Positions 1 to 45,154 of a DNA stretch of 64,000 nucleotides are shown piece by piece. Position numbers and translations under genes: made by a program. Position 1 is the first letter of the stretch. Every line of letters begins with the position of its first letter. The notes below the pieces were generated by a model. That model was not told where the DNA came from. It saw nothing but the letters and a program-made list of their open reading frames with translations, and did no database searches. The stretch is from the NCBI GenBank assembly GCA_963826535.1, contig CAWGXL010000011.1, positions 448,809 through 512,808 on the forward strand, written 5' to 3'. This DNA comes from an uncultured bacterium (GTDB taxonomy: Bacteria > Patescibacteriota > Microgenomatia > Levybacterales > UBA12049).

Positions 1-1
1 C

Positions 2-601
2 TTTTCTGCTTTGTTAAATGCCTGCACTGACTGTTTCGGCTGCGTTGGTTTAACTCATAAAAAATATTGTATTTTTAACAAACAATATACTAAGGAAGAA
101 TATTTAAAAAAAGTTGAAGAGCTGAAAAAAGAAGATCCGGAAAAACAACTCGCGCAAATGTTTGAGATAAAAAAGCAGATACCTCATCCTTCAAGTCAGC
201 AAGTAAATGCAGAAAATTGTCCTTATGGAAATTATATTTATGATTCAAAAAATAGCTACTGGTGTTTTAATAGTTATTATATTGAAAATTGCGGCTATAA
301 TATTTTTAGCGGGTATGCAAAAAATTGTTGGGATGTCTTTTGTTTTGGAGATTCCAAAGCAACTTCTGAGCTTTGTTATGAGCATTTCTATACGTCCTGG
401 TGCTATAACTGCGCCTTTCTTAGTTATTCATTTACTTGTACTAACTGCCATTATGGTACTCAGCTTAAAAATTGTACTGATTGTTTCGGCTGTGTGGGGC
501 TTACCAATAAAAAATACTGCATATTAAATAATCAGCTAACAAAAGACCAGTATCAAAAAGCTGTAAATGTTATTAAAAATGAGCTTGGGTGGAAAAATTA
601 G
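2..601 (+). CDS. Cys-rich CxxC-repeat protein, paralog family member (5' end cut by window edge)
   Basis: Frame is open from the window start. Repeat architecture and conserved C-terminus (TNKKYCILNNQLTK..ELGWKN) match the paralogs at 632, 2265, 3198 and 21960(-). Confidence 0.6.
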   Translation, partial: FSALLNACTDCFGCVGLTHKKYCIFNKQYTKEEYLKKVEELKKEDPEKQLAQMFEIKKQIPHPSSQQVNAENCPYGNYIYDSKNSYWCFNSYYIENCGYNIFSGYAKNCWDVFCFGDSKATSELCYEHFYTSWCYNCAFLSYSFTCTNCHYGTQLKNCTDCFGCVGLTNKKYCILNNQLTKDQYQKAVNVIKNELGWKN

Positions 602-631
602 CGAATAAACTTACTGCTATAATACTAATCA

Positions 632-1543
632 ATGAAATTTCTTGAAAAATATGAACTCCTGAAAAAATCTATTCCGGTTCCGGCAGTAATCAGGGATAAA
701 ACAAGCATTAATTGTGAATTAGTGGATTACTGCAGTGGTTGCAAGAATTGTTTTTATTCTTTTTATATTTATAAATCTGAAGACTGTATATATACAACTT
801 GGGGTTGGGGTAATAAGCTCGTAGATTGTACTGTGCTTACGAAAGGATCTGAAAAATGTTATCAATGTGTTGATAGCAATAATTGTAATAATTGCATTTA
901 TCTCCTGGATTGCAATAATTGTACTGACTGCAATTTTTCAGCATACTTGAATTCATGCAGTGATTGTATTGGTTGTGTTGCATTGACTCATAAAAAATAT
1001 TGCATCTTTAATAAGCAGTACACAAAAGAAGAATATTTAATGCAGGCTGAACGATTAAAGAAAGAAAAGCCTGAAAAAGCATTGGAACAAATGTTGAAGT
1101 TAAAAAAGACGATTCCCCATCCTGCGAGTCAACAATTTAATAGCGTGAATTGCCCTTATGGAAATTATATTTATAATTCAAAGAATTGCTTTTGGTGTTT
1201 TAATACTTATGATAGTGAAAGTATCGGATATAGTAATTTAGACGGCGGAATAAGGAAGTGTTTTGATACTTTTTGGTGCGGCGGCCCCAGAGATAGATTG
1301 ACCGAAAATTGTTATCAACTTGTAGGCTCAGGTCTTTACTATAATTGTTATAACTGCGCATTTTTAACCGATAGTGAAGGTTGTACGAATTGTTATTACG
1401 GTAGAGATCTGAAAAACTGCTCTGACTGCTTTGGTTGTGTCAGTCTGACCAACAAAAAATACTCCATCTTGAATAACCAATTGAGTAAAGAACAATACGA
1501 AAAAGCCATTAAAGATATTAGAAAAGAGCTTGGGTGGAAATAA
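632..1543 (+). CDS. Cys-rich CxxC/CxxCxxC-repeat protein, paralog 2
   Basis: 303 aa. Conserved N-terminus MKFLEKYELLKKSIPVPAV, internal THKKYCIFNKQYTKEEY linker and C-terminal KELGWK. Two duplicated halves of Cys repeats. No signal peptide. Confidence 0.65.
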   Translation: MKFLEKYELLKKSIPVPAVIRDKTSINCELVDYCSGCKNCFYSFYIYKSEDCIYTTWGWGNKLVDCTVLTKGSEKCYQCVDSNNCNNCIYLLDCNNCTDCNFSAYLNSCSDCIGCVALTHKKYCIFNKQYTKEEYLMQAERLKKEKPEKALEQMLKLKKTIPHPASQQFNSVNCPYGNYIYNSKNCFWCFNTYDSESIGYSNLDGGIRKCFDTFWCGGPRDRLTENCYQLVGSGLYYNCYNCAFLTDSEGCTNCYYGRDLKNCSDCFGCVSLTNKKYSILNNQLSKEQYEKAIKDIRKELGWK

Positions 1544-1580
1544 ATTGACTTTTTATACATCATGATGTATAAATATATAT

Positions 1581-1841
1581 ATGATACGAACACAGGTTTA
1601 TATCACATCCAAACAACATGCGCTGCTTAAGAAAAAAGCACATGCAGAGAATGTCACGCTTTCTGAGGCATTGAGAAAGGTTATTGATAAAGATTTATTG
1701 AAAGCAGAAAAGGTTCACAGGCAACAGCCGCACAAAAATTGGTTTCGCTCTGTGGTAAAAGAGGTTGAACAATTAGGCGGAGAAGGACCATCTGATTTGG
1801 CAAGTAATGTTGATGAATATTTATACGGGGGCAAAAAATGA
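1581..1841 (+). CDS. type II antitoxin, ribbon-helix-helix (VapB-like)
   Basis: 86 aa. 4-bp ATGA overlap with the downstream PIN gene. N-terminal beta-strand/helix pattern typical of RHH antitoxins. Confidence 0.5.
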   Translation: MIRTQVYITSKQHALLKKKAHAENVTLSEALRKVIDKDLLKAEKVHRQQPHKNWFRSVVKEVEQLGGEGPSDLASNVDEYLYGGKK

Positions 1842-2260
1842 GGGTATTTGGGGATTCGAATTATTTAATTGCTCTTTTTAACATCAAGGATGGTCTGCAT
1901 GAAAAAGCGTTGACAATAAGCGATAAGCTTACTAATGAAAATACTACCCTAGTTGTCTCCAGTTTTATATTTTTAGAGACTGTCACGGTTTTATCACAGA
2001 AAGTAAATAGAGAAGTAGCGAGGCGTGTAGGCAATGAATTATTGCTGAGAGGTCAAGTTGAGATACTGCATGTTACAGAAGTATTACAAGATAAAAGCTG
2101 GGAGATATTTCAAGAGATAAATAGAAAAAATGTAAGCTTTGTAGATTGTAGTATATTGGCAATTATGGAGCAAGAAGATATACCTTTACTTTTGACATTT
2201 GACAGGGAAGATTTTAAACCTTTACAAAAGGCTTATAAATTTGAGATTTATAGTAAATAA
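1838..2260 (+). CDS. vapC: PIN-domain toxin (VapC-like)
   Basis: 140 aa. N-terminal FGDSNYLIAL acidic motif and C-terminal LTFDREDF, typical PIN residues. Translationally coupled to the upstream antitoxin. Confidence 0.6.
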   Translation: MRVFGDSNYLIALFNIKDGLHEKALTISDKLTNENTTLVVSSFIFLETVTVLSQKVNREVARRVGNELLLRGQVEILHVTEVLQDKSWEIFQEINRKNVSFVDCSILAIMEQEDIPLLLTFDREDFKPLQKAYKFEIYSK

Positions 2261-2264
2261 GACC

Positions 2265-3173
2265 ATGACATTTCTTGAGAAATACGAACTATTGAAAAAA
2301 TCGGTTCCTGTTCCGGCTGTGTTTGCGCCATATAGTATAAACTCTGAATATGCAGATAATAATATGAGAGGTAAGAATTGTTATTACTGCTTTGATGGGT
2401 ATTATTATGAAAATTGTATGTATACTGGCATTGGCGCGTACAACAAATGGATTGTAGATTGTATACAGATGGAATTATCTGAAAAATGTTATGAGACTAT
2501 AGATAGCACCAGATGTTATGGTTCTTCCTATTTGATAGAGTGCAATAGTTGTAATGATTGTCATTTTTCCGCCTTTTTAAACTCTTGTGCTGACTGTTTC
2601 GGTTGCGTGGGTTTAACTCACAAAAAATACTGTGTTTTTAATAAGCAATACAGCAAAGAAGAATATTTTAAAAAGGTTGAAGAATTAAAAAAAGAAAAGC
2701 CGGAAAAGATACTGGCCCAAATGCTTGAACTAAAACAAACCGTTCCGCATCCAGCAAGTCAGCAGTCAAATAATGAGAATTGCCCGTATGGTAATAATAT
2801 ACATGATTCAAAAAATTGTTTTTGGGCTTTCAATATATATTATTTTGACAATTGCGGCTATGTTTTTAACGGATCGTACGCAAGGAATTGTTGGGACTCA
2901 TATCTATTTGGGGGGAACCCCGGGATAAAAACTGTCTCAGAATTATGTTATCAGCAGGTATATACGGAAACTTGTTACAACTGCGCTTTTTTAATCTACT
3001 GTGAAAATTGCACAAATTGTCATTACAGCTCATATCTCAGAAGCTGCACTGATTGTTTCGGTTGTGTTGGCCTGACAAAGAAAAAATACTGCATCTTGAA
3101 TAACCAACTGACCAAAGATCAATATGAAAAAGCTTTGAAAGAGATCAAAAGGGAGTTGGGGTGGAAGTTTTAG
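2265..3173 (+). CDS. Cys-rich CxxC-repeat protein, paralog 3
   Basis: Start moved to the conserved MTFLEKYELLKK. The upstream extension of the track ORF overlaps vapC. Ends KRELGWKF. Confidence 0.65.
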   Translation: MTFLEKYELLKKSVPVPAVFAPYSINSEYADNNMRGKNCYYCFDGYYYENCMYTGIGAYNKWIVDCIQMELSEKCYETIDSTRCYGSSYLIECNSCNDCHFSAFLNSCADCFGCVGLTHKKYCVFNKQYSKEEYFKKVEELKKEKPEKILAQMLELKQTVPHPASQQSNNENCPYGNNIHDSKNCFWAFNIYYFDNCGYVFNGSYARNCWDSYLFGGNPGIKTVSELCYQQVYTETCYNCAFLIYCENCTNCHYSSYLRSCTDCFGCVGLTKKKYCILNNQLTKDQYEKALKEIKRELGWKF

Positions 3174-3197
3174 TAATGAGTCGCAAATATCAATGCT

Positions 3198-4115
3198 ATG
3201 ATATTTCTTGAGAAATACGAACTCCTGAAAAAATCTGTTCCTGTGCCGGCTGTGTGGAATGGCTCATATACGGTTGATTGTGAATATGTAGATTATGTCT
3301 ATCAAAGCAAAAATTGCTACCACTGCTTTGATTCAGCAGCGCTGGAAGATAGTATGTATGCAACGATGTCGCGGGGAAATAAACTGATAGATTGCACCGC
3401 TGTATTTGAATCTGAAAAATGTTATCAAAGTATTGATAGCACCAGATGTCAGAATTGTACAAATCTGTTGGATTGCAACAATAGTACCGATTGTCACTTC
3501 TCAGCCTTTTTAAACAATTGCACTGATTGCTTCGGTTGCTTAGCTCTGAATAATAAGAAGTATTGCATTTTTAACAAACAATACACAAAAGAAGAATATT
3601 TTAAAACGGTTAAGGAACTAAAGAAAGAGAAGCCGGAAAATTTATTAGCCCAATTGTTTGAACTAAAACAAAAGTTTCCCCATTCCGCAAGTCAGCAATT
3701 TAATACACAAAATTGTCCATATGGTAATTATATATATGATTCAAAGAATTGCTATTGGGCTTTTAACATGTATTCTTGTGAGAATTCTGGATATATCTAT
3801 AATGGTTATTATGCGAATAACAGTTGGGATGTTTATCTATCCGGTAGGATGGGGAATCAAAAGGGACATCCACTTGGCGAGCGATTGTACGAACTTATAG
3901 CTACAGGGCCATCTTGTTACGACTGCGCATTTCTTGCCAATTGCACTTATTGTACAAATTGTTACTATAGTGCATATCTTAGAAACTGCGCTGATTGTTT
4001 CGGGAGTGTTGGCCTGACGAATAAAAAATACTGCATCCTGAATAACCAACTGACCAAAGAACAATATTTAAAAGCCTTAAAAGAGATCAAAAAAGAACTT
4101 GGGTGGAGAGTTTAA
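3198..4115 (+). CDS. Cys-rich CxxC-repeat protein, paralog 4
   Basis: 305 aa. MIFLEKYELLKKSVPVPAV ... KELGWRV. Same two-half architecture. Confidence 0.65.
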   Translation: MIFLEKYELLKKSVPVPAVWNGSYTVDCEYVDYVYQSKNCYHCFDSAALEDSMYATMSRGNKLIDCTAVFESEKCYQSIDSTRCQNCTNLLDCNNSTDCHFSAFLNNCTDCFGCLALNNKKYCIFNKQYTKEEYFKTVKELKKEKPENLLAQLFELKQKFPHSASQQFNTQNCPYGNYIYDSKNCYWAFNMYSCENSGYIYNGYYANNSWDVYLSGRMGNQKGHPLGERLYELIATGPSCYDCAFLANCTYCTNCYYSAYLRNCADCFGSVGLTNKKYCILNNQLTKEQYLKALKEIKKELGWRV

Positions 4116-4184: not shown

Positions 4185-4835
4185 ATGAAACTAATAGTGG
4201 GACTCGGCAATCCGGGGGAGAAGTATAAGAATACCCGGCATAATCTGGGTTTTAAGACTGTAAATCGATTCATGCAGGATTTTGAGACTGTGCAAAAGAC
4301 TGAATGGACGAAGAGCGTGAAGTTGAAAAGCAATATTGTGGATCTTGACTGGCAGCCGAAGACAGGACCTATGGAACATGTAATCCTTGCAAAACCATCG
4401 ACGTATATGAATAATTCCGGTATGGCGGTTCAACTTATTTCGGCATACTATAAAATTAATCCCGGGGATATTTGGATTGTGTATGATGAGTTGGATCTGC
4501 CAATTGGCTCAATGCGAATCCGTTTAGGCGGAGCGGCTGCAGGACATCGCGGAGTGGAGTCAATTATTGAAAGTTTAGGGACTGACCGTTTTTGGAGGTT
4601 CCGGATGGGAATTGGAACTGAGCATCCTCATTCGGGACGAAGAGCACGGGAAGACGGGAAAGTGCATAAGAATAGTAAACAATTTTTAGGTGATGTTAAT
4701 GATTATGTCCTTAGTCCATTTGGTCAAGAGAATAATAATAAAGCCCGAGAGCTTATCAAGCATGCATCAGATGCCATTTCCGAAGCTTTGGAAAAGGGGC
4801 TCGAGAAGGCGATGAACCGGTATAATACGAAGTGA
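4185..4835 (+). CDS. pth: peptidyl-tRNA hydrolase with C-terminal extension
   Basis: GLGNPG..Y..TRHNLGF N-terminal signature of Pth. TGA stop. About 40 extra C-terminal residues. Confidence 0.85.
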   Translation: MKLIVGLGNPGEKYKNTRHNLGFKTVNRFMQDFETVQKTEWTKSVKLKSNIVDLDWQPKTGPMEHVILAKPSTYMNNSGMAVQLISAYYKINPGDIWIVYDELDLPIGSMRIRLGGAAAGHRGVESIIESLGTDRFWRFRMGIGTEHPHSGRRAREDGKVHKNSKQFLGDVNDYVLSPFGQENNNKARELIKHASDAISEALEKGLEKAMNRYNTK

Positions 4836-5359: not shown

Positions 5360-5629
5360 ATGAAACAAGCGCATGTTTTTATATCCGGGTCGGTGCAAGG
5401 GGTTGGATATCGTTTTTTTGTTAAGAGTTGGGCTAAAACATATGGAATTGCCGGGTGGGTCGGTAATATACCTGACGGCCGGGTGGAAGGAGTTTTTCAG
5501 GGAGAGAGGCAGGCTATTGGTGAACTTATTACAAAGTGCCGAGAGGGTTCGTTTCTGGCGGAAGTTAAGGATATAGAGGTGAAATGGGAAGAAACTGAGG
5601 AGGAGTTTGGGGATTTTCAGGTTAGGTAG
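5360..5629 (+). CDS. acyP: acylphosphatase
   Basis: 89 aa. VQGVGYRFF and GWVGN..DGRVE signatures. Confidence 0.8.
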   Translation: MKQAHVFISGSVQGVGYRFFVKSWAKTYGIAGWVGNIPDGRVEGVFQGERQAIGELITKCREGSFLAEVKDIEVKWEETEEEFGDFQVR

Positions 5630-5656
5630 TTAATGTTTAAGCTGTGCAGCAAAATT

Positions 5657-6124
5657 TTATTCTCTTCCCTGAGCAGTCAATCTTTTCTCTTCGTTTATAT
5701 CAGATAGGTCTTTTTCTATTTGAACTAATACTTCTTCCTTAAAAACTCTCGTATTTATAACAGATGCTCCATCTGATTTACGGATTACTCTATAAATATC
5801 TTTTTCAGTATAGTGATGAATTAAATCTACACAATTATTAAATATATCTAAATATTGACCCCCGCTTTCTCCAAGCCTTCGATTTCTCATTGTTTCATTT
5901 AAAGCAGCTTTTGCTGCAATAAATTCAATATGCGTTTTGCCTGGATTGAAATCATTACCATATAAACGAAGGTTGAAGTCTACATATTCTTGTCTTGCTC
6001 TATCACCGATAGCCATGCTACTAATTGAATATGCTTTTTCTCCTATGAGAAATTTTTCAAGCCTCTGACGAGGTGTCTGCGATTGTTCAGATTCTTTTGT
6101 CGGTCTGGGCCGTTCTACTGGCAT
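5657..6124 (-). CDS. hypothetical protein
   Basis: 155-aa ORF with no recognisable motifs. Confidence 0.4.
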   Translation of the reverse strand: MPVERPRPTKESEQSQTPRQRLEKFLIGEKAYSISSMAIGDRARQEYVDFNLRLYGNDFNPGKTHIEFIAAKAALNETMRNRRLGESGGQYLDIFNNCVDLIHHYTEKDIYRVIRKSDGASVINTRVFKEEVLVQIEKDLSDINEEKRLTAQGRE

Positions 6125-6328: not shown

Positions 6329-7162
6329 CTACTTTTTTAGTTCTTGTTCGATGAGTGTTTGGAATTGGGGGAAGGGTTGGGCGCCGGTTAGTCTCCAGCC
6401 GTTGACGAAGAAGGCGGGGGTTCCGTCTACGCCAACTTTGTTGGCTTCGGCAATATCATCATCGACCTTTTGTTTGTATTTAGCGGAGTCTAAACACGAG
6501 CGAAATTGTTCAGTGTTTAAGCCAAGTTCTCCGGCATAATCGGTGAAGGTGATAGCGGCATCGGCGGCTGCTAATGGCGACCAGGTATCCTGATTTTTAA
6601 ACAACAGGTCATGGTAATCCCAGAATTTGTCCTGCTCATTAGCGCACTCTGATGCCTCGGCAGCTTTCTGAGCATTAGGGTGGATTGATATGAGGGGGTA
6701 GTGCCGATAGGCAAATTTAATTTTGTCTGTTTTGATGTAAGTGTCAAAAAGCTGAGGGTAGGTGTTGTCTATATACTGTTTGCAGAATGGACATTGGAAG
6801 TCGCTGAATTCAACGACAGTTACTTTGGCGTTATCATTACCGAGAGTAGGTAAATGACCAATAGCGACGTCAACTTTTGGTTGAAGGGTGGGAATAAGTG
6901 GCGCGGTGTCATTGGCTGCAATATTGTTTAGCTGTCCGGTTTGAGTATTATTGCTGTTTTGAGTTTTTAACGTGTCCTGGAGATAGAAGACTCTATGGGT
7001 TAATATGCCTAGAAAAAAGGCGAAGATGACTAATGCAATAACCAGGTAGAGGTTGACGGATTTGAAGGAGAGGCGAGGAATTTTGATTTGTAAATATTCA
7101 TTTTGCTGGGTTTTTGGTTTTTCTAATTCTTTAGTAGTCGTGTCGGGTAGACTTTTTTTCAT
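6329..7162 (-). CDS. DsbA-family thiol:disulfide oxidoreductase, membrane anchored
   Basis: FQCPFC thioredoxin-fold active site. N-terminal TM helix (LYLVIALVIFAFFLGIL). Confidence 0.75.
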   Translation of the reverse strand: MKKSLPDTTTKELEKPKTQQNEYLQIKIPRLSFKSVNLYLVIALVIFAFFLGILTHRVFYLQDTLKTQNSNNTQTGQLNNIAANDTAPLIPTLQPKVDVAIGHLPTLGNDNAKVTVVEFSDFQCPFCKQYIDNTYPQLFDTYIKTDKIKFAYRHYPLISIHPNAQKAAEASECANEQDKFWDYHDLLFKNQDTWSPLAAADAAITFTDYAGELGLNTEQFRSCLDSAKYKQKVDDDIAEANKVGVDGTPAFFVNGWRLTGAQPFPQFQTLIEQELKK

Positions 7163-7286
7163 TTAATTATATTCTAGTTGTTAATGCCTGAATTGTCAAT
7201 TAAAATTGTAGAGAGAATGTTAGCCCATCTTGAAATTTTGTAGTAATTAATTGTTAAGATAGTGGTTGGGAAAAAGAGCAATGTTG

Positions 7287-7619
7287 TTATTTATTTTTAT
7301 CGGGGAAAATCTGAGTAGAATTGCGATCTTTCTTTCCTATCTCACTAAGTCTATCTCTTAGTTTATTGAGTCGATGCTCATCATTTAGCACTTCCATTAA
7401 GGCTTCTGGCGTCAAAACTTTTTTGCCTGAGACCTGCAGAGCAGCCTCGAGAAATTGAGCCGCTTTATGTGGTACAACGGCAGCATACTCTCTTTTATGA
7501 TGACTAATATGGATAATTTCATCTCCAACTGCGGCACGAGCCAGTGCATCGCCTAAATTATTCCGGAATTCTACTGTAGTATAGCTTTTCGGCGCCTTTT
7601 TAAGTCGTTCTGATGACAT
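7287..7619 (-). CDS. Phd/YefM-like antitoxin-domain protein (no adjacent toxin)
   Basis: N-terminus TVEFRNNLGDALARAAVGDEIIHISHHKREYAAVVP resembles Phd/YefM. No partner ORF on either side. Confidence 0.4.
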   Translation of the reverse strand: MSSERLKKAPKSYTTVEFRNNLGDALARAAVGDEIIHISHHKREYAAVVPHKAAQFLEAALQVSGKKVLTPEALMEVLNDEHRLNKLRDRLSEIGKKDRNSTQIFPDKNK

Positions 7620-7820
7620 AACTAAGATTAGTATTGTATATTATGGGCTGGGGTATGTCAATTTTTTTTGGATTTGATTATAAAAAAGTCTGAATAGCTA
7701 AGGCGTAAAGTTTTGAGACGAGTTGGGTTTTGCCGAAATTCCATCTTATAATACTTGTCAAGGGATATTTTGAGGGTTATTTGGTGATATATTTAATCCC
7801 TGTAGTATAATAGCGATATT

Positions 7821-8312
7821 ATGTCGGCAGAGATACCTGTACCAGGTCAAGGGGCGAAGGAACAAAGAGGGGTATTACTTACTCCCCGGCAAATGCTTGA
7901 AGAGCTTTTTCAGGAAGGCAGCGGTAGAGCTACGAAAGTAAAAGCCGTATTTGCTCATGCATGGTATCATAAATTACATGCTATTAAAGATACTATGGAT
8001 CTGAGGAAATCCGTCCTAGAACAAAAAGGACAATACGTGCCAGAGGATATAATTGCTGGTCTTAATCACGCAGCGGCTGCAGTGGAAGCCTTTGGGAAGA
8101 AGGTGAATAGGTGGTGGAGTCCAGAAGCAGGACCGCAGAAAGAAACATATTTTGAAGGGAGAGGAATAGCAAGGCGGATTTTTGAACAATATCTTGATAT
8201 TGTTGAAGCTGGTGAGGACAGAGTAATAGCTGAGCGAGGATTAGCTTTAGGTATTAAGTACGGCTATGATTGGCATGTGCGTCCCTCTTTAGAAAGACTT
8301 GTGGCTGCCTAG
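7821..8312 (+). CDS. hypothetical protein
   Basis: 163-aa ORF. Confidence 0.4.
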   Translation: MSAEIPVPGQGAKEQRGVLLTPRQMLEELFQEGSGRATKVKAVFAHAWYHKLHAIKDTMDLRKSVLEQKGQYVPEDIIAGLNHAAAAVEAFGKKVNRWWSPEAGPQKETYFEGRGIARRIFEQYLDIVEAGEDRVIAERGLALGIKYGYDWHVRPSLERLVAA

Positions 8313-8383
8313 ATGGTTATGTCTGAGATAAAAGATATACTTAAAATAAATAGCAAAAAGACAAAATAGTTCGTGATGGTATT

Positions 8384-8755
8384 TTATTTTAATGCTGGGA
8401 TGAGTTGGGTTTTGCCGAAGAATTTTAGGCGCAGGAGTTTTTTGTCTTGGGTTAGGAAAAAGTCGCAGTCGGCATTGGCGGCGCTATGGAGTTGGATGTT
8501 ATCTTCTAAGTCTGCAGTTGGGCCGGTTAGAGCCTTTTCCAAAATTTCCAGCGTAAAATCTGTAATTTGAAATTTTTGCATCTGTGTGAATATATTTTTA
8601 TTTGGCAACTTTATCTTAAATACATAACAATAAATATGAAATGAAAGGGATGAGGTGTAAACAATATGATTTAAAAGGTGATTAAGAATTTGTTTTTCAG
8701 GCCTTCTATGAATTGAATCAATTAAGTAATTAGTGTCGAGAAAGACTTTTGCCAT
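8384..8755 (-). CDS. vapC: PIN-domain toxin (VapC-like)
   Basis: MAKVFLDTNYLID N-terminus and C-terminal LTQDKK. Overlaps the upstream antitoxin gene. Confidence 0.55.
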   Translation of the reverse strand: MAKVFLDTNYLIDSIHRRPEKQILNHLLNHIVYTSSLSFHIYCYVFKIKLPNKNIFTQMQKFQITDFTLEILEKALTGPTADLEDNIQLHSAANADCDFFLTQDKKLLRLKFFGKTQLIPALK

Positions 8756-9005
8756 ATTTATCCATTAAATGCTTTCTATATATTTTCTCTCTTTGCTTAT
8801 AGGAAGTTTTTGGTAGATTAAGCTCTTCAGCTATTCTCTTGAGAGTTTTTACACTTTCCTCAGTAAATGGCTTAACTGCCTTTTTCGGTGTAACTTCACC
8901 AATAATCTTTGAGCGGTGAATCAACGTTACTGATCCGCCACTTCTAAGGGTTTTAACCAGTTGTGAAGATTTCGTACGTAAATCGGTAGTTGTAATGTAT
9001 TGCAT
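8730..9005 (-). CDS. Phd/YefM-like antitoxin of PIN toxin
   Basis: 91 aa. N-terminus ITTTDLRTKSSQLVKTLRSGGSVTLIHRSKIIGEV. Overlaps the PIN gene. Confidence 0.5.
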   Translation of the reverse strand: MQYITTTDLRTKSSQLVKTLRSGGSVTLIHRSKIIGEVTPKKAVKPFTEESVKTLKRIAEELNLPKTSYKQREKIYRKHLMDKYGKSLSRH

Positions 9006-9107
9006 ATATTTAAATATATATTAAAGTGTACATTTCGTCAAGACGGATTATTTTTTTCCTTGACAGGGGGAGAGCTGTCTTGTAAGATTAATAAACCCTT
9101 TTTATTT

Positions 9108-9434
9108 ATGTCAGATGTCATTTTTACAGATCTGAATTTTAAGAAAGATGTTCTTGGAAATAGTCTTCCGGTAGTCCTGGATTTTTGGGCTCCGTGGTGT
9201 ATGCCATGCCGGATGGTTTCGCCTATTATAGAGCAATTAGCAAGTGAGTATACGGGGAAGGTGATTGTGGGGAAGATGAATGTTGATGAGAACACTGAGA
9301 CTGCATCGCAATTTGGCATTATGAGTATTCCGACAGTAATGGTTTTTAAAAACGGTAAGCCGGTTAAGAGTCTGATCGGGGCACAGAGGAAAGACAATTA
9401 TAAGAAGATGATTGAAGAAGCGCTCGCTGCGTAG
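9108..9434 (+). CDS. trxA: thioredoxin
   Basis: WAPWCMPCR active site. Start taken at MSDVIFTD. The upstream extension of the track ORF was rejected. Confidence 0.85.
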   Translation: MSDVIFTDLNFKKDVLGNSLPVVLDFWAPWCMPCRMVSPIIEQLASEYTGKVIVGKMNVDENTETASQFGIMSIPTVMVFKNGKPVKSLIGAQRKDNYKKMIEEALAA

Positions 9435-9439
9435 CAGCG

Positions 9440-9630
9440 AGTAAATCCGAAGCACGAAATCCGAAATACGAAACAATATCAAATGACCAAAATACAAAAC
9501 GTTTTGGACATTTGGTATTTGAAGATTAGCCCCGCAAGGGGATCAAGAAATTTGTTTCGAATTTCTCCCGCAATCGTAGATACGGGATCCCGCTATTTTC
9601 ATAGTCGGGAGATATTCGAATTTCGGATTT
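9440..9630. repeat. AT-rich palindromic element copy in the trxA-trxB spacer
   Basis: cgaagcac..atatcaaa and caaaacgttttgg palindrome core shared with the 23S IVS start (23955-23975) and with 37095-37117. Confidence 0.45.
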
Positions 9631-9637
9631 TTTATTT

Positions 9638-10564
9638 ATGGATACTTTATATGACGTTATTATTATTGGTTCCGGGCCTGCAGGTCTGACTGCTGCTTTA
9701 TATACTACGCGCGCAAGTTTGAAGACTCTTATTATTGCCGGAGAAAAGTGGGGGGGGCAACTGATGCTTACTACTCAGGTGGAAAATTATCCGGGGTTTC
9801 CTGATGGAATAGAAGGACCGGAACTTATGATGCAGATGCGGAAACAAGCGGAGAAATTCGGGGCAGAATTTGTTGAGGAGAGTTTCGCGTCAGGAGATTT
9901 CCGCAAGGCTCCATTTGTGGTTAAAACATATGAGAAAATATTTCAGTCGAAATCTGTAATTATAGCAACCGGCGCGGATACAAAGTGGCTTGGTGTTACG
10001 GGTGAGATGGAGAAGATCGGGCGCGGTGTTTCTTCGTGCGCACCGTGTGACGGACCATTTTTTCGTGATAAGGATATAGTTGTAGCAGGAGGAGGGGATA
10101 GCGCAATGGAGGAGGCTATCGTACTGACACGCTTTGCTAAAAGCGTCACACTTATTCATAGGAGGGAAAGTTTCCGGGCGTCTCCAATTATGATTGAAAG
10201 AGCTCAGAAAAATCCTAAAATTAAAATTATTTTAAATAAGCGAATTGTCGAGATTTTGGGGAAAGACCGGGTTACAGGTATTAAGCTTACCGATGCTAAG
10301 ACAAATGAGATAACGGAGATGAATATTGAAGGGGTTTTTGTGGCAATTGGTCACATGCCAAATAGTAAGGTTTTTCAGGGCATTGACAGAGACGCGCTAG
10401 GGTATATTGTTGTGCACGCGCATACGAAGACGAATATTGACGGCGTTTTTGTGGCGGGGGATGTTCATGATAGCGCATACCGTCAAGCAATTACTGCTGC
10501 GGGGTTTGGTTGCGCTGCTGCACTTGAGGCGCAGTGGTGGCTGGAAAAAAAAGATTTGGCATAG
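9638..10564 (+). CDS. trxB: thioredoxin-disulfide reductase
   Basis: IIGSGPAG FAD motif, CAPCDG redox-active disulfide, GGGDSAMEEA NADPH motif. Confidence 0.85.
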   Translation: MDTLYDVIIIGSGPAGLTAALYTTRASLKTLIIAGEKWGGQLMLTTQVENYPGFPDGIEGPELMMQMRKQAEKFGAEFVEESFASGDFRKAPFVVKTYEKIFQSKSVIIATGADTKWLGVTGEMEKIGRGVSSCAPCDGPFFRDKDIVVAGGGDSAMEEAIVLTRFAKSVTLIHRRESFRASPIMIERAQKNPKIKIILNKRIVEILGKDRVTGIKLTDAKTNEITEMNIEGVFVAIGHMPNSKVFQGIDRDALGYIVVHAHTKTNIDGVFVAGDVHDSAYRQAITAAGFGCAAALEAQWWLEKKDLA

Positions 10565-10584
10565 CAACTCCTGCGAAATAAAAT

Positions 10585-12612
10585 ATGGAGAGCTCCTTAA
10601 AACAACATAATGTAGAACAAGCTAAGCCTGGATTCGATATCAAGCCGGTCATCGAGCAAAAGCCGTTTGAAAGTCCGCCAGTGCGAAGGTTTTTTGCAAA
10701 ATGGTGCGAGATTAACGATTCAATTCAGCCACAAATTGTCAGCCGCGATGATTGGGAACAAAGAGGTGAGAAGGGGATATTGGAAAAAAGGCCGGACAAC
10801 AAGAAAACTCTATTCATCCCCAAAGATTTACAATTGTGGGAAATGATCGGAGTTTTAGAGGTGGTAGAAAATGATACTTTTATCGATAAACCAGAACGAC
10901 AGGGGGAAGCAAAAGAAAAGATTTTACAATTAGGAAAAACATTTAGAAATGCTGGGGTGTACATTGCTCAGCGATTAGACTGCGTAAATGAAGGAAAATC
11001 TATAGCTTCTAATCTTGCTGAGGATTTTTACCAGTATGGTCAATCTCTTGAGACGGGTAAAAAATCTGAGGAACATGCTACTGTTGAGGATATTGCCAAA
11101 CTTACTTTAACCCCCGAAGAAACAGAAGCAGTTGATCATTTTCTTGCAGGAGACAGCCTGTATGAATCACGACAGGCAAGGGCCGAGAAGTTATCTATTA
11201 CGGATCCCTTAAAAAGAGATGAATTTTATGAAGCAGAACGTCGAAGAACCCTCGGCAAATTTTTCAAAGCTACAGAGAAAGCTTTTGAATTAAAAGGTAA
11301 ATCTGAAAGAGGAGAGTTACAGAAGTCCAAAGCTGACGTGAAGCCGTGGCAGAGGCGCACTCCTGTCCACAGTGCATTTGTTGCCAAAAGTGAAAAAGGA
11401 TTGACCCAACAGATTGAAACTCCAAAAAGAGAATTGGAAGATAGTTTTTTTCGTCGAGGCTTGGAAAAAGTTAAAAATGAGATGACACAGCCAGGGTGGG
11501 GGCAGTTTATAAATTTCGTCCTTGAAAGACATGGGTTTGATTATCGTGTTGGGGAGAAAAAAATTATTGATTCTTTAGGCATAAAACAGCTTAGAACAGA
11601 ACTTGAAATCCTCAGACAATCAGGAGATGTTAGCAAAATAAGCGCAAAAGAGCGAAAAATCGCAGATAAAATTCAAGCAGAAATCAACAGCTTACCGCGT
11701 CATGATGCAAATAATCCCTCAGAAATACTGGCGAATCAATACATTAATTGTTTGGGTGCTTCTATCCTCGGAGGAGCGCTAATGCGGGAGGCTGGGTTAA
11801 ATTATCTCCTAGGCGATTTGCCGCGGCATTCGATCTTGTTATTAGTTACAAGCGATGGGCATGTAGAGTGGAGGGATATGCAAAAACCTTCACACAACGA
11901 AATTTTAACAGATAAGATGATCGGCAGTAGAAGAAAAGATGGTTCTACGCTTACGGTTTCTGATATTGTGGAATTTAGTAAAAAGCCTCAACCCGAGGGA
12001 TTGATGCTCGATTTTGACAATAGAAAATATCGAAGGAAACTTCCATGGGTCAAAAAAGGAGAAAGACAATACGTAACCATGTTTGCACCTGAATACGGTC
12101 AAAAAATTCAATTATTAAATAATACAGGCATAGCCCTTTCAAAGCTTGGTTTAATGGAGGAGGCAATTGAGGCATATCGTGAGGCAATTGCACTTGATCC
12201 GAAATACCCGCATCTTTATTCCAACCTTGGCATTGACCTTAAACATCTAGGTAGAAATGAGGAGGCAATTGAGGCATATCGTGAGGCAATTGCACTTGAT
12301 CCAAAAGATGCCAAATCCTACAACCGCATCGGAGATGCCCTTTCCGAGCTTGGGGATAACGAAAAAGAAACAGAAACCTATCGCCAACGTCTTAAAGAGG
12401 AGGCAATTGAGGCATATCGTGAGGCAATTGCACTTGATCCGAATTACTCCCATCCTCACTTTAACCTCGGCAGCACCTTTTATGAACTCAATCGCGATTC
12501 AGAATCGATTGAGGAATACCAGAAATTTATTCGCTTAGCAGACAAAAATAAAGATTATTGGTTAATAAACGAAGCTGAAGAAGCAATTACTGAATTAAAA
12601 AACGAAGCGTGA
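10585..12612 (+). CDS. TPR-repeat protein (unknown N-terminal domain plus C-terminal TPRs)
   Basis: EEAIEAYREAIALDP(K/N)Y repeated. Three identical 47-nt repeat units lie at 12162-12448. Confidence 0.6.
   Translation: MESSLKQHNVEQAKPGFDIKPVIEQKPFESPPVRRFFAKWCEINDSIQPQIVSRDDWEQRGEKGILEKRPDNKKTLFIPKDLQLWEMIGVLEVVENDTFIDKPERQGEAKEKILQLGKTFRNAGVYIAQRLDCVNEGKSIASNLAEDFYQYGQSLETGKKSEEHATVEDIAKLTLTPEETEAVDHFLAGDSLYESRQARAEKLSITDPLKRDEFYEAERRRTLGKFFKATEKAFELKGKSERGELQKSKADVKPWQRRTPVHSAFVAKSEKGLTQQIETPKRELEDSFFRRGLEKVKNEMTQPGWGQFINFVLERHGFDYRVGEKKIIDSLGIKQLRTELEILRQSGDVSKISAKERKIADKIQAEINSLPRHDANNPSEILANQYINCLGASILGGALMREAGLNYLLGDLPRHSILLLVTSDGHVEWRDMQKPSHNEILTDKMIGSRRKDGSTLTVSDIVEFSKKPQPEGLMLDFDNRKYRRKLPWVKKGERQYVTMFAPEYGQKIQLLNNTGIALSKLGLMEEAIEAYREAIALDPKYPHLYSNLGIDLKHLGRNEEAIEAYREAIALDPKDAKSYNRIGDALSELGDNEKETETYRQRLKEEAIEAYREAIALDPNYSHPHFNLGSTFYELNRDSESIEEYQKFIRLADKNKDYWLINEAEEAITELKNEA
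12162..12448 (+). repeat. three copies of an identical 47-nt unit (gaggaggcaattgaggcatatcgtgaggcaattgcacttgatcc) inside the TPR gene
   Basis: Copies at about 12162, 12258 and 12402, read directly from the sequence. Confidence 0.8.
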
Positions 12613-21048: not shown

Positions 21049-21960
21049 CTAAATCTTCCAACCAAGTTCTTTTTTAATTTCATTTACGGTTATTATATAT
21101 TGCTCTTTCGTTAACTGATTATTTAAAATACAATATTTTTTATTGTTCAATCCTACACACCCGAAGCAGTCAGAGCAGTTTTTGATATTTGTTCCATAGT
21201 AACAATTTGTACAAAACTCACTATATTGTAAAAATGCACAATCGTATAAAGAAGGTCCTGAATGCACAAGTTCATAACACCTTTCACCAAGAACTCCCGT
21301 AAGGTATCCTTTTTTGCCGGAGTTAGCGATATCCCAACAATTCTTTGTGGCAGTACCAACATACATATATCCTGAATTTTCACAATATTGACTGTTAAAT
21401 GACCAATAACAATTCTTTGAATTATATATATAGTTTCCGTAAGCACTGTTCTCGCTATTGATTTGTTGACTGGCAGGATGCGGTGTCTGTAGTTTAATCT
21501 CAAACAATTGCTCCAGAATCTTTTCCGGCATCTCTTTTTTCAGTTCCCGGACTCTTTTAATGTAATCTTCTTTTGTATATTGAATATTCAAAATGCAGTA
21601 TTTTTTATGAGTTAAAGCAACACAACCAAAGCAATCAGTACAATTGTTTAGAAAGGCTGAGAAGTGACAAGCAGTACAACTATTACAATCCATTAAATAC
21701 GAGCAACTGTTACATTTGTTTGAGTCTATAGATTGATAACACTTTTCAGATTCTATTACCAAAATACAATCTACCAGTTTATTTCCCCAACCGATAGTAC
21801 TATACATACTATCTTCTAATGCAACTGAGTCGAAGCAGTAGTAGCAATTCTTGCTTCTGATAGTATTATCTACATATTCGCAATCTATAGTATAAGGAGA
21901 AAAAACTGCAGGTACAGGAATAGATTTTTTCAAGAGCTCATATTTTTCAAGAAAGGTCAT
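21049..21960 (-). CDS. Cys-rich CxxC-repeat protein, paralog 5 (dispersed copy)
   Basis: MTFLEKYELLKKSIPVPAV ... KELGWKI. Start moved to the conserved M. Confidence 0.65.
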   Translation of the reverse strand: MTFLEKYELLKKSIPVPAVFSPYTIDCEYVDNTIRSKNCYYCFDSVALEDSMYSTIGWGNKLVDCILVIESEKCYQSIDSNKCNSCSYLMDCNSCTACHFSAFLNNCTDCFGCVALTHKKYCILNIQYTKEDYIKRVRELKKEMPEKILEQLFEIKLQTPHPASQQINSENSAYGNYIYNSKNCYWSFNSQYCENSGYMYVGTATKNCWDIANSGKKGYLTGVLGERCYELVHSGPSLYDCAFLQYSEFCTNCYYGTNIKNCSDCFGCVGLNNKKYCILNNQLTKEQYIITVNEIKKELGWKI

Positions 21961-22311: not shown

Positions 22312-22384
22312 GGGCCGGTAGCTTAGCTGGTAGAGCGTCGCGTTTGCATCGCGAAGGTCGAGAGTTCGAATCTCTTCCGGTCCA
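22312..22384 (+). tRNA. tRNA-Ala(TGC)
   Basis: Hand-folded cloverleaf. Acceptor GGGCCGG/CCGGTCC with G3:U70. Anticodon loop TTTGCAT. TTCGAAT T-loop. No encoded CCA. Confidence 0.85.
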
Positions 22385-22418: not shown

Positions 22419-23191
22419 TGGATTTATGATTTTTTTGTCTGAAAGCAGAAAGCTAAGAGCTTAAAGCAAATTTTGCTTCGCAGTTTGAAGCAAGCCCCCT
22501 AGTTAGAGGGGGTTTTCTTCAAGCGTTGTGAGGCATGTCTTTTTACCCAAGGGTATGAGACAGGGTTTTTTGATTCTTGACTCCGATTTAAACGGAGTTG
22601 ACAGAACGAAAGGACTTAAAGCTTATCAATTGAGGTTCTTTGACAAGTGAAGAGAAGATCCCGCGTTTTGCTATCTGGCAAAATACGGGATTGTGGAAAT
22701 GTAAATATTTATTAATGCCAACAATGGATGCCTAGGAGATTCTGGCCGAGGAAGGACGCAGACGGCGGCGATACTCGTCGGGGAGGTGCCATCAACCTCT
22801 GATCCGGCGGTTTCCGAATGGAGCAATCCCTCCATCGCAAGATGGAGACCCTAGCGTAAAAATGGTTCGCAAGAATCATATAGCATTAGGGTGGGAACGG
22901 CGTGAACTGAAACATCTTAGTAACGCCAGGAAAAGACATCATATGAGATTCCCTTAGTAGCGGCGAGCGAAAGGGGAACAGCCTAAACTCCGATTTATCG
23001 GAGGGTTGCAGGGCAGACGATATTTGAGTGTTGCGAATAGCAGAAAGATCCGGAATGATCTTCCAAAGAAAGTGAAAGGCCTGTATGCGAAATTCAAAAC
23101 ACCGATAGTTTGTTCCTAAGTACCATGGAGCACGATTTAAACTCTGTGGGAATCCGGGTCGACCACGATCCAAGGCTAAATACCAGAATCT

Positions 23192-23230
<39 letters not shown>

Positions 23231-23544
23231 CACCCCGGAAGGGGGATGAAATAGAACTGAAATTGTTGGCTAACAAGCAGACAGAGGCCTTCGGCGAAAG
23301 CTCAGGCTAATGTCGTGCCTATTGAAGAATGAGCCGGTGAGTTTTTGATTGCTGCATGTTTAACCAATTTTACATTGGGAAGACGAAGTGAAAGCGAGCC
23401 CTAATTGGGCTACCAAAGTAGCAGTCATTAAACCCGAAACCGGGTGAGCTAACCTTGAGCAGGGTGAATCCCGACTAAAGTCGGGAGGAGGCCCGAACTC
23501 GTGAATGTAGCAATATTCTGAGATGACTTGAGGTTAGGGGCAAT

Positions 23545-23576
<32 letters not shown>

Positions 23577-23810
23577 CCCGAAATATATTAAGGTATAGCG
23601 CTTGGTAATTACAGCAGGGGGTAGAGCACTGAATGGTTCGCGGCGGCGCAAGCTGTCGTAACCAATCAAACTCCGAATACCTGTCTTGTGTATCCAAGTA
23701 GTCAGTCTTGTCGGGCTAAGCTGATGAGATTAAAGGGAAACAACCCAGACTCTCGATTAAGGCCTCGAAATAAAGGCTAAGTTTTAAAGGAAGTCAAATT
23801 CCAGAGACAT

Positions 23811-23841
<31 letters not shown>

Positions 23842-23924
23842 TAAAGATAGCGTAACAGCTCACTGGCGGATGGGATTTGGCGCCGAAAATGTAACGAGGA
23901 TTAAGCCTTTTGCCGAAATCGGAG

Positions 23925-24112
23925 ACTCTTGTCCGGAGGACAAGGAATATCAAAATACGAAGCACAGGATTAAATTCAAAATCCAAAATTACAAATTCCA
24001 AATAATATCAAAATTCAAATAATAAAATTCAAAACATTTAGAATTTTGATATTTGGATTTATTTAGGATTTGGTGCTTTGATATTTGAATTTCTCGTCCT
24101 TTGGATGAGTTT
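23925..24112 (+). other. intervening sequence (IVS) hairpin in the 23S helix-45 region, ORF-less
   Basis: An AT-rich inverted repeat of about 150 nt replaces the helix between GCCGAAATC.. and ..GGTAGGGGAGCG (E. coli helix 45 position). Sequence-related to intergenic elements at 5259-5359 and 37060-37168. Confidence 0.6.
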
Positions 24113-24860
24113 GGTAGGGGAGCGTCTTAAGTGCAGTGAAGTCGAATCGTAAGGTTTGGTGGAGCGGTTAGAAGTGAGAATGCCGGCATGAGTAGCGTAA
24201 TCCGCCTGAGAACGGCGGACACCGAAAGCACAAGGTTTCCTCCGCAATGTAAGTCAGCGGAGGGTAAGTCGGACCTAAGGGTATTCCTCGTTAAAGGGGA
24301 TTAGCCCGATGGACAAGTCGTTAATATTCGACTACAGGATGTGTGTATTATAAGGGGGTGTCGAAGGTGGAAGAATTGAGCGGGCCGCAAGGCTGCCGTC
24401 TAAGCAGTAAGATAGGGATAATTGGCAAATCTGTTATTCTGGTTAATTAAGCTGCGAATGAAAGCTGCGTGTAAAAACGGAGCGATTTGATCTCTTTCAG
24501 CTTCCAAGAAACGCCTCATTATCCAAATCGTAAGATTTGGAAAACACATGTTTTTCCGTACCGCAAACCGACACAGGTGTGCAGGTCGAGAAGACTAAGG
24601 TGATCGGAAGATGGATGATTCAGGAACTCGGCAAAAAAGCTAGGCGTAACCTATGGGAGATGCCTTGCCCCGCTATGCGGGGCTGCAACAAAAGTTTACT
24701 TAGCGACTGTTTATCTAAAACACAGGTCCCTGCAAAGCCGAAAGGCAACGTATAGGGGCTGACACCTGCCCAGTGCCGGTAAGTCAATGATGCTGAGTGA
24801 TGTCGCCGCAAGGCGACTGAGCTTGGTATCAAAGCTCCGGTGAACGGCAGCAGTAACTAT

Positions 24861-25575: not shown

Positions 25576-25590
25576 GAACTGTTCTAAGGT
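25576..25590 (+). other. putative 15-nt 23S micro-exon AACTGTTCTAAGGTA between two introns
   Basis: Matches E. coli 23S AACGGTCCTAAGGTA (13/15). Flanked by intron-like sequence on both sides. Confidence 0.4.
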
Positions 25591-44857: not shown

Positions 44858-45154
44858 GTGGCAGAACTTCAAGATATAACTCTTAATTGTAAAGACTGCG
44901 GGCAAAGTTTTGTTTGGACAGTTGACGAACAAGAGTTTTACAGACAAAAGAATTTTAGCGCTCCTTTAAGATGCAAGAATTGTCGTGCACAGGCTCGAGC
45001 CCGATTTAATGGCGGGGGAAACGCAGGAGGCGCAAGGCAATCTTTTCCAATAACTTGCGCTAATTGCGGTGCACAAGATACTGTACCTTTCCAACCAAGA
45101 GGCGATAGGCCGGTTCTTTGTAGAAATTGTTTTAGGAAGGGAGATAATAAATAA
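44858..45154 (+). CDS. tandem zinc-ribbon protein (2x CxxC-x15-CxxC), Gly/Arg-rich linker
   Basis: CKDCG..x15..CKNC and CANCG..x15..CRNC. 98 aa. Preceded by an about 260-nt GC-rich structured leader. Confidence 0.55.
   Translation: MAELQDITLNCKDCGQSFVWTVDEQEFYRQKNFSAPLRCKNCRAQARARFNGGGNAGGARQSFPITCANCGAQDTVPFQPRGDRPVLCRNCFRKGDNK

Follow-up and report, generated by a model that had tools for sequence, protein, structure and literature searches.

The window analysed here, 64,000 nucleotides of contig CAWGXL010000011.1 (positions 448,809 to 512,808; assembly GCA_963826535.1) from an uncultured bacterium of the Patescibacteriota order Levybacterales, opens with an array of genes for cysteine-rich proteins. 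These proteins belong to a very large, undescribed family that is spread across the Patescibacteria and has no entry in Pfam, NCBIfam or the PDB. The proteins are predicted to fold into a two-lobed beta-solenoid, with most of their cysteines apparently pointing inward as a structural ladder. The explanation put forward here, tentatively and at a probability of roughly 0.4, is that the family members are non-catalytic recognition scaffolds that would act together with a zinc-finger module and an ATPase resembling type IV coupling proteins (T4CPs), as cargo or adaptors, with the array serving as a standing repertoire of specificities.

An initial annotation made from the DNA sequence alone had described four paralogs head to tail and a fifth on the opposite strand, and both the coordinates of the open reading frames (ORFs) and a family hidden Markov model (HMM) agree with this layout. 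In the six-frame translation of the window the HMM finds exactly five copies, with E-values between 3e-98 (the truncated paralog 1) and 4e-141. The copies, and the two lobes of the one whose structure was predicted, are as follows.

2..601, + strand: paralog 1, the 3′ two-thirds of a gene cut by the window edge; equals the C-terminal part of P0022 (298 aa)
632..1543, + strand: paralog 2, 303 aa with 30 Cys, a core-only short form; equals P0050
2265..3173, + strand: paralog 3, 302 aa with 27 Cys; equals P0030; the ATG at 2265 yields the family-conserved N-terminus
3198..4115, + strand: paralog 4, 305 aa with 24 Cys
21049..21960, − strand: paralog 5, 303 aa with 25 Cys, the protein modelled; P0001 is the same gene with an upstream GTG start
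21541..21903, − strand: N-terminal lobe of paralog 5 (residues 20-140), a predicted Cys/Ser-ladder beta-solenoid followed by the cap CTDCFGCVALTHKKYCILNIQYTKEDY and a helix
21091..21453, − strand: C-terminal lobe of paralog 5 (residues ~170-290), homologous to the N-terminal lobe

The other window copies are 58-64% identical to copy 2. Common to the copies are the N-terminus MxFLEKYELLKKS(I/V)PVPAV and a C-terminus of the form ...KKYCILNNQLTKEQY...ELGWK, which reads KKYSILNNQLSKEQY in copy 2. These shared ends and an internal duplication had been noticed at the outset, and both are seen in the alignments; residues 1-135 of copy 5 match its residues 136-303 with 36% identity (E 9e-29). Cysteine content had been put at 40 or more per protein and has to be lowered to 24-30 in each full-length copy (7.9-9.9% of residues) and 18 in the partial one. 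Each protein carries 8-13 CxxC motifs. The CxxCxGC motif, previously taken for a repeat array, is confined to the conserved cap that ends a lobe, giving two occurrences in each protein except copy 4, which has one. The absence of a transmembrane segment or signal peptide held up: no 19-residue window exceeds a Kyte-Doolittle value of 1.12 in four of the window copies, and none was seen in 68 longer members of the family either. The isoelectric points (pI) are near neutral (6.1-8.1 in the window copies; family medians 5.7-6.0).

AlphaFold2 predicts the whole of paralog 5 as an all-beta protein of two lobes (pLDDT 79, pTM 0.70), and the N-terminal lobe alone (pLDDT 90.2) as a series of 'E--E--E' bridges followed by a helix. 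Each lobe, of ~120-130 residues, is predicted to be a tight beta-solenoid with a Cys/Ser ladder and without a solved close relative. Zinc ribbons and a disulfide beta-helix had been named in the initial annotation as the folds to look for; the predicted model resembles only beta-solenoids. The lobe is closed by the cap C-x-D-C-F-G-C-V-G-L-x2-K-K-Y-C-I-x-N-x-Q-Y-T-K-E-E-Y, after which the helix begins, and the pattern that defines the family, C-x-[DN]-C-F-G-C-[VA]-G-L-x2-K-x-Y-C-I-x-N-x-Q-[YL]-x-K-E-E-Y, ends both lobes. A Foldseek search of the PDB returned only beta-solenoids and no close relative, the matches comprising AlbG, EfsQnr, CAP/TBCC-type helices, pectate-lyase-like helices and tailspikes; the best are 2xt2 (E 9e-4) and 2w7z (E 0.04), with TM-scores of 0.11-0.26. 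The best neighbour overall is a predicted cysteine-rich protein of a choanoflagellate giant virus (E 5e-5, TM-scores 0.54/0.48), deposited as BFVD A0A5B8IEK9 (ChoanoV1) and annotated TNFR-Cys. Other viral, uncharacterised cysteine-rich proteins, H6SUK4 of Campylobacter phage IBB35 and those of phrog_15341, have the predicted lobe fold or weak sequence similarity (PHROG E 1e-9); the 'CaiB/BaiF' label of the phage protein looks spurious.

The antifreeze protein of Tenebrio (TmAFP) is a right-handed beta-helix with 12-residue coils and the repeat TCTxSxxCxxAx. The family resembles it in having Cys or Ser at every third position, a narrow predicted coil and the 'E--E--E' bridges, and the ladder columns (Cys/Ser plus Leu/Val) would supply one small inward residue per third position as in TmAFP. 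However, TmAFP (1EZG) has no significant structural or sequence match to the family and stands only at rank 47 in the Foldseek search (E 5.8, TM-scores 0.20/0.26). TmAFP is secreted and fully disulfide-bonded, whereas the proteins studied here are bacterial, lack a Thr-rich ice-binding face and a signal peptide, tolerate Leu and Val in the ladder, consist of two lobes with caps and are linked to a zinc finger and an ATPase. The pentapeptide-repeat proteins (Qnr, MfpA and AlbG; PF00805) are cytoplasmic, non-enzymatic beta-solenoids that act by surface recognition or mimicry, and they provide the top PDB fold matches of the lobe (2xt2 and 2w7z). They differ from the family in having a period of 5 with coils of 20 residues rather than a period of 3 with coils of ~12, and a ladder of Leu/Phe rather than Cys; the family gives no match to PF00805, has low TM-scores to these folds and is not acidic.

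The behaviour of the cysteines was computed on 431 full-coverage family members. Cys-rich columns lie strictly at every third residue in both lobes, and Cys frequency has an autocorrelation of 0.5-0.7 at every lag divisible by 3, against about -0.3 at the remaining lags. Cysteine reaches a conservation of 90% or more at only five positions, all of them in the caps: C107, C110 and C113 in lobe 1, C266 and C275 in lobe 2. At the other Cys columns it is found in 17-79% of members, the alternatives being Ser, Leu, Val, Ile, Thr and Gly; the order of preference in the ladder is Cys, then Ser, then Leu/Val/Ile. The CxxCxxC triad ending lobe 1 is 91-96% conserved; the spacing CxxCxxC-x8-C contains no Pro, and the fourth Cys is 67% conserved in lobe 1. 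In the equivalent part of lobe 2 the first two Cys of the triad are only 56-67% conserved. Individual window paralogs lack many of these cysteines, having NSxxC for NCxxC and CFGSVG for CFGCVG. Among 25 paralogs of the source genome, entropy in the ladder phase is 0.51 bits against 1.1-1.2 bits in the outward phases of lobe 1, and 0.74 against 1.4-1.5 bits in lobe 2.

Because the cysteines recur with period 3, are exchanged for Ser, Leu or Val and lie in the phase of low entropy, most of them appear to form an inward structural ladder rather than metal ligands of DnaJ-like or Fe-S sites. Since only five are at least 90% conserved, at most one small metal site per lobe could be present. The DnaJ-type zinc finger (PF00684) consists of four tandem CxxCxGxG repeats that hold two Zn centres. 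It finds no match at E<=1 in these proteins, and the core is likewise without a match to Fer4 (ferredoxin-type 4Fe-4S, CxxCxxCxxxCP) or to zinc-ribbon models. The suggestion of a DnaJ-like zinc finger thus falls with the missing DnaJ_CXXCXGXG match and the confinement of CxxCxGC to one cap motif per lobe, and the more general prediction of Zn or Fe-S binding sits poorly with columns in which Ser, Leu, Val and Ile stand in for Cys. The family is a caution against taking CxxC density as a sign of metal binding.

The initial annotation had not recognised the family, and the curated libraries do not hold it. The window core proteins match nothing in Pfam at E<=1 or in NCBIfam, the PDB sequence-profile search gave no match (best E 0.13, to maltose O-acetyltransferase), and PADLOC gave none for the window proteins. 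The sole PHROGs match is phrog_15341, of unknown function (E 1e-9), and searches of viral contigs, phage records and plasmids returned no relatives. A word-indexed search yielded 478 matches, none of them with a Pfam domain, and the named homologues came from Microgenomates, Beckwithbacteria and other Patescibacteria. When 1.84 billion cluster representatives (clustered at 50% identity) were searched with the family profile, 3,521 matched at E<=1e-3, 2,302 at E<=1e-10 and 1,143 at E<=1e-30. At least 546 coding stretches turned up when one genome of each GTDB species was scanned. Nearly all of the best 79 loci are labelled Patescibacteria and represent many classes, among them Peregrini-, Peri-, Gracili-, Pacei-, Nomura-, Gottesman-, Abawaca-, Niyogi-, Giovannoni- and Sungiibacteria. 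A few are labelled only 'bacterium' or 'uncultured', and four (L001, L002, L022 and L041) carry an automatic Gammaproteobacteria label. These four are 'uncultured Gammaproteobacteria' metagenome-assembled genomes (binchicken/ERP TPA assemblies) with members 55-63% identical to the window proteins; the labels are probably wrong and the genomes likely Patescibacteria. Family ORFs number 208 in the 79 loci, and as many as seven stand in tandem within 13 kb. Tandem arrays are common across them and are therefore a property of the whole family, so that the distribution survey called for in the initial annotation returns a Patescibacteria-wide family that is usually arrayed. Full-text searching of the literature found no description of it, and the main text of Méheust 2019 (PMC6744442) lists many hypothetical families enriched in the Candidate Phyla Radiation (CPR), none identifiable as this one.

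Most relatives are longer than the window copies. With 550-600 residues, they consist of an N-terminal zf_Tbcl + zf_Tbcl_2 pair, the 300-residue core, a linker with the conserved sequence GEFFP...YNET.AQE and a second zinc-finger pair, so that the treble-clef zf_Tbcl/zf_Tbcl_2 module stands at one or both ends of the long forms. Over all 300 residues of the core, their representatives score E 1e-55 to 1e-85. The window copies, in contrast, are core-only proteins of 302-305 residues that begin and end with the core, and the zf_Tbcl/zf_Tbcl_2 domains (PF13451, PF23477; TIGR04272) are absent from all five. Such core-only proteins are known from Microgenomates-like genomes, in which the same domains form a stand-alone gene placed before the core-only genes. 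The window has one such gene, which adjoins neither a paralog nor an ATPase gene:

44858..45154, + strand: stand-alone zf_Tbcl + zf_Tbcl_2 protein, 98 aa (PF13451, 1e-16; PF23477, 4e-18; TIGR04272 pattern CxxC-x17-CxxC)

Its product is ~24% identical to the zinc-finger proteins of the cassettes described below, and it is uncertain whether it is a partner of the paralogs.

A P-loop ATPase of the VirD4/TraD/TrwB type (PF10412, PF02534, DUF87) is encoded at 15 of the 79 loci. About 1.96 VirD4-like T4CP homologues are present per Patescibacteria genome (PMC12102498), and on this figure an ATPase would be expected by chance in 1.2-2.0 loci (naive Poisson probability 1e-9 to 1e-12, ignoring phylogenetic non-independence). 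The ATPase gene is directly adjacent in eight loci and co-directional in seven of these, with gaps of 2-77 nt. Six core-only loci outside the closest relatives of the source genome were examined, and in all six the genes for ATPase, zinc finger and solenoid are adjacent. Five of the six share one order on one strand, ATPase, then a zinc-finger gene of 92-99 aa, then the solenoid gene or genes.

L080, Beckwithbacteria: 455-aa ATPase (DUF87/TrwB_AAD_bind, weak) and three solenoid genes
L081: 765-aa DUF8128-DUF87-TrwB_AAD_bind ATPase (6423-8720), zinc-finger gene (8722-9000) and two solenoid genes, one of them at 9102-9998
L082/L083: 750-aa DUF8128-DUF87-TrwB_AAD_bind ATPase, in L082
L084, GCA_001803415.1, Microgenomates RBG_16_45_19: cassette at 6489-12074 with a 766-aa DUF8128-DUF87-TrwB_AAD_bind ATPase
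L064, Gracilibacteria: 779-aa ATPase of the same homology cluster
L020, Gottesmanbacteria: 103-aa zinc-finger gene upstream of the solenoid gene; ATPase gene adjacent but convergent

The L084 cassette lies between yidD and yidC in the dnaA-dnaN-rpmH-rnpA origin region, with PrgI-like and TraC-like genes ~5 kb upstream and a VirB4-like ATPase gene (DUF87/AAA_10/P-loop_TraG) ~2 kb downstream. The Gracilibacteria homologue in L064 (5968-7011) has a Lys-rich tail, …PGKKAATTKPKVVKKPSKKKE, that is absent from the window copies and could be a nucleic-acid-binding or translocation-signal extension. The linked ATPases match TrwB_AAD_bind, T4SS-DNA_transf, TraG-D_C and the VirD4/TraD models of NCBIfam, the NCBIfam scores all lying far below the cut-offs. 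They resemble T4CPs (VirD4/TraD/TrwB) in these domain matches and in a co-directional linkage comparable to that of T4CP genes with relaxosome or effector partners. They differ in that most have no TM-like window and hence no membrane anchor, in an N-terminal DUF8128, and in the lack of a relaxase and of a defined translocation signal. T4CP homologues of Patescibacteria are also usually not beside virB4 (only 148 of 5,713), and their exaptation 'cannot be ruled out' (PMC12102498). The fusion of the zinc finger in long forms, its separation in core-only loci and the conserved gene order argue that the ATPase, the zinc finger and the solenoid work together.

The source genome contains at least 29 copies of the gene, since at least 28 of the best 120 matches lie on the same 894,453-bp contig and window copy 4 is added to these. 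This is roughly 3% of a 0.9 Mb genome. The in-genome paralogs are 52-80% identical (median 61%), and several have closer counterparts in other genomes (76% identity). Among the window copies, pairwise nucleotide identity is 67-71% (~50-60% at third codon positions), synonymous divergence (dS) is saturated at 1.3 or more or is undefined, non-synonymous divergence (dN) is 0.20-0.31, and the longest exact word in common is 22 nt. Recent duplication, gene conversion and an assembly artefact are rejected by the saturated dS and the short shared words. The copies are genuine paralogs and not the assembly artefacts that the initial annotation had allowed for. Because dS is saturated and counterparts across genomes can be closer than paralogs within the genome, the expansion is ancestral and stably retained under purifying selection; the rapid diversification proposed for the paralogs next to pth is contradicted by the saturated dS, the dN values and some cross-genome orthologs that are 76% identical. 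Retention of at least 29 copies in a streamlined genome argues for an important role.

Variability is unevenly distributed along the protein. Across the 25 in-genome paralogs the first coils of each lobe (columns ~20-70 and ~195-250) are the variable part, with an entropy of 1.5-2.4 bits, against 0.3-0.8 bits in the N-terminal helix, the second half of the lobes, the PHPASQQ...NCPYGNYIY linker and the tail. This partition fits a constant docking hub with paralog-specific recognition surfaces. The window ORFs would then be core-only ('short-form'), soluble, non-catalytic recognition scaffolds rather than multi-metal proteins. Their constant parts would dock onto shared partners, and the hypervariable first coils of each lobe would give each paralog its own ligand. 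One shared partner may be the treble-clef zinc-finger pair, fused in the long forms and encoded by a separate gene of ~93-103 aa in Microgenomates and Gracilibacteria, and the other the VirD4/TraD-like ATPase (DUF8128-DUF87-TrwB_AAD_bind where Pfam-typed), mostly without a membrane anchor. The solenoid proteins would most likely be cargo or adaptors handled by this ATPase, and the set of old paralogs, 29 or more, would amount to a ready-made repertoire of specificities. The beta-solenoid fold class and the repeat scaffold with variable surfaces are of kinds already known; the novelty lies in the predicted Cys-ladder solenoid of two lobes, in the fusion and fission of its zinc finger and in its cassette with an orphan T4CP-like ATPase. 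The cassette names concrete partners for the solenoids. It also suggests what the VirD4-like ATPases not associated with virB4, of which there are roughly two per Patescibacteria genome, might do. The CPR/Patescibacteria account for a large share of bacterial diversity; they are epibionts with very small genomes, and the majority of their lineage-specific proteins have not been characterised.

Several observations weigh against this scaffold reading. The window contains no ATPase homologue and its only zinc-finger gene is unlinked, so the partnership of the window copies is extrapolated from other genomes; for the same reasons these copies would be satellite paralogs, and the cassette of the source genome may lie elsewhere in its 894-kb genome. 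The ATPase association covers ~20% of the sampled loci, which are not phylogenetically independent, and most array loci have other neighbours, for example housekeeping genes or a TrmB-type regulator (14 of 79 loci, mostly Peregrinibacteria/Peribacteria). The near-neutral pI comes with no obvious nucleic-acid-binding or secretion signal. The facing of residues and the Cys-Cys distances follow from periodicity and DSSP strings only. Finally, one or two metal sites could be made up of the five conserved cysteines, which lie as CxxCxxC in lobe 1 and as C...C in lobe 2.

This last point leads to the reading of the proteins as binders of Zn or Fe-S through their CxxC, CxxCxxC and CxxCxGC motifs, with a role in storage, redox reactions or electron transfer. 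A composition of 8-10% Cys, the well-conserved triad of lobe 1, the two conserved Cys of lobe 2, the fusion of relatives to bona fide zinc-finger domains and the thioredoxin-reductase-like and DsbA-like genes within about 6 kb of the array would all suit it. It is nevertheless improbable, as the Ser, Leu, Val and Ile that replace Cys at all but five columns cannot ligate metal, the strict period of 3 is the pattern of a structural ladder, many of the cysteines are missing from the window paralogs themselves, no DnaJ_CXXCXGXG, Fer4 or zinc-ribbon model matches the core, and the redox neighbours are not conserved across other loci, on which ground a redox linkage was rejected. The same ladder could instead belong to exported surface or effector proteins, their coils braced by disulfide bonds like those of the Tenebrio antifreeze beta-helix or of TNFR-type Cys-rich domains, that would leave the cell by a non-Sec route, for example from a VirD4-like ATPase to a type IV secretion system (T4SS), and act on a host, the paralogs being an effector or adhesin repertoire. 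The TNFR-Cys annotation of the best predicted-structure neighbour, the synteny of arrays with a T4CP-family ATPase, the setting of the L084 cassette among PrgI-, TraC- and VirB4-like genes, C-terminal tails that are Lys-rich or net-positive and the DsbA/MdbA-like oxidoreductase gene in the window point this way; in Patescibacteria, epibiotic growth depends on the T4SS, a system with no known substrates (PMC12857230). Export is judged unlikely all the same, given that neither four window copies nor 68 long forms have a signal peptide or TM segment, that a membrane anchor, present in canonical coupling proteins, is missing from most linked ATPases and that the ATPase is usually away from virB4 (PMC12102498). 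An obligatory disulfide ladder, moreover, would call for better conserved Cys positions, zinc-finger domains such as those fused here are typically cytoplasmic, and the match to TmAFP is not significant.

A part in conflict or defence would make the proteins DNA mimics, or inhibitor, immunity or sensor proteins working with a HerA/FtsK-type ATPase, and the arrays variable islands stabilised by toxin-antitoxin (TA) modules, with pentapeptide-repeat Qnr/MfpA/AlbG and immunity-gene arrays as analogues. The top PDB fold matches are indeed the pentapeptide-repeat DNA mimics AlbG and EfsQnr, the tandem arrays have hypervariable surfaces, the ATPase is weakly similar to anti-phage HerA models, and the arrays of two related genomes enclose different TA modules. 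The fold matches, however, have TM-scores of at most 0.26 and E-values of 9e-4 or worse, the repeat period is 3 and not 5, PADLOC finds nothing, and phages, plasmids and viral contigs hold no relatives. A pI of 6.1-8.1 (family medians 5.7-6.0) is not strongly acidic, so mimicry of DNA by charge is not supported. Old paralogs with orthologs conserved across genomes do not show fast turnover, and whereas defence genes are patchy, the family seems to be present almost throughout many CPR classes; a defence role has little in its favour once these are counted. Still more remote is an enzyme built on a beta-helix, of the hexapeptide acyltransferase or pectate-lyase type, with an active site of invariant Asp, Asn and Gln. 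D64/D210 and the N-x-Q pairs are invariant in both lobes, and there is a very weak match to maltose O-acetyltransferase (E 0.13). That match is not significant, a catalytic constellation of the His/Cys/Ser type is not conserved, the invariant residues belong to the cap and ladder motifs and recur symmetrically in the two lobes, which is what structural residues would do, and thirty paralogs of one enzyme in a 0.9 Mb genome are hard to rationalise. The recognition-scaffold reading can also be enlarged into a phylum-wide system of three components, an orphan soluble VirD4/TraD-like ATPase, a treble-clef module and Cys-ladder solenoids with variable surfaces. In this doubtful extension the solenoids might be cargo selectors or translocated cargo, for example T4SS effectors directed at the host or proteins that capture host macromolecules. 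The predicted solenoid would there be a new type of beta-solenoid fold with a 3-residue Cys ladder, and would add a new type to the known repeat scaffolds.

The array is interrupted by a TA pair between paralogs 2 and 3, separated from them by spacers of 37 and 4 nt, and is followed by pth.

1581..1841, + strand: putative antitoxin, ribbon-helix-helix (RHH)/NikA-like, 86 aa (PF21983 E 0.002 and PF01402 E 0.019, both below curated cut-offs)
1838..2260, + strand: PIN-domain (VapC-like) toxin, 140 aa (PF01850 E 6e-15, 56 bits against a cut-off of 23.6; TIGR00028 E 4e-4, below cut-off)
4185-4835: pth, after the array (PF01195, 5e-57)

The pair had been identified in the initial annotation as an RHH-PIN module. 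The PIN domain is clear and the RHH matches are weak. A PIN toxin gene that follows a small RHH-like gene with a 4-nt overlap is as expected of VapBC modules, from which the pair departs in the weak antitoxin match and in the VapC subfamily score below cut-off. L001, the closest relative recovered (contig CAZJRC010000029.1), has a HicA gene (PF07927, 8e-10) with an upstream 93-aa ORF, possibly HicB, at 5481-5992. The 3′ end of a paralog, which comes after a scaffold gap, lies on one side of them and the next paralog on the other. The occurrence of two different TA families, vapBC and HicA, in analogous positions suggests that such arrays repeatedly take in TA modules, which would ride along or stabilise them and probably have no functional part in the solenoid family. 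The proximity of pth has no detectable significance, and a promoter and terminator scan of the array was not informative.

The paralogs and the PIN gene have a GC content of 32-36% against 41% for the other window genes, while at third codon positions (GC3) they have 28-36%, within one standard deviation of the other window genes. The low GC comes mostly from a composition rich in Asn, Tyr, Lys and Cys and not from foreign origin. A mobile-element origin was rejected on the normal GC3 and the lack of relatives in viral contigs, phage records and plasmids.

Other genes of the window deserve brief mention. A DsbA/thioredoxin-fold protein, possibly an MdbA-like oxidoreductase, is encoded at 6329-7162 (−) (PF13462, 3e-32), and a thioredoxin-reductase-like flavoprotein at 9638-10564 (+); both genes lie within 6 kb of the Cys-rich array. 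The MdbA-like family has been reported as CPR-enriched (PMC6744442). Three giant ORFs are present at 53830-63606 (−), 27413-32065 (−) and 48801-53321 (−). Those of 3,258 aa and 1,550 aa have no Pfam domain at E<=1e-4, and the third, of 1,506 aa and with six Laminin_G_3/ConA-like lectin domains (E 2e-141), is probably a surface adhesin. The 23S rRNA gene (22701-27134) has 4,434 nt against 2,925 nt in the model and contains an ORF for a LAGLIDADG homing endonuclease (24947-25468; PF00961, 1e-23) and a group I intron (25581-25804; RF00028, 72 bits). A 5S rRNA gene follows it (27213-27331) and a tRNA gene precedes it (22312-22384), with no 16S rRNA gene adjoining; rRNA insertions of this kind are typical of CPR bacteria (cf. 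PMC11270868).

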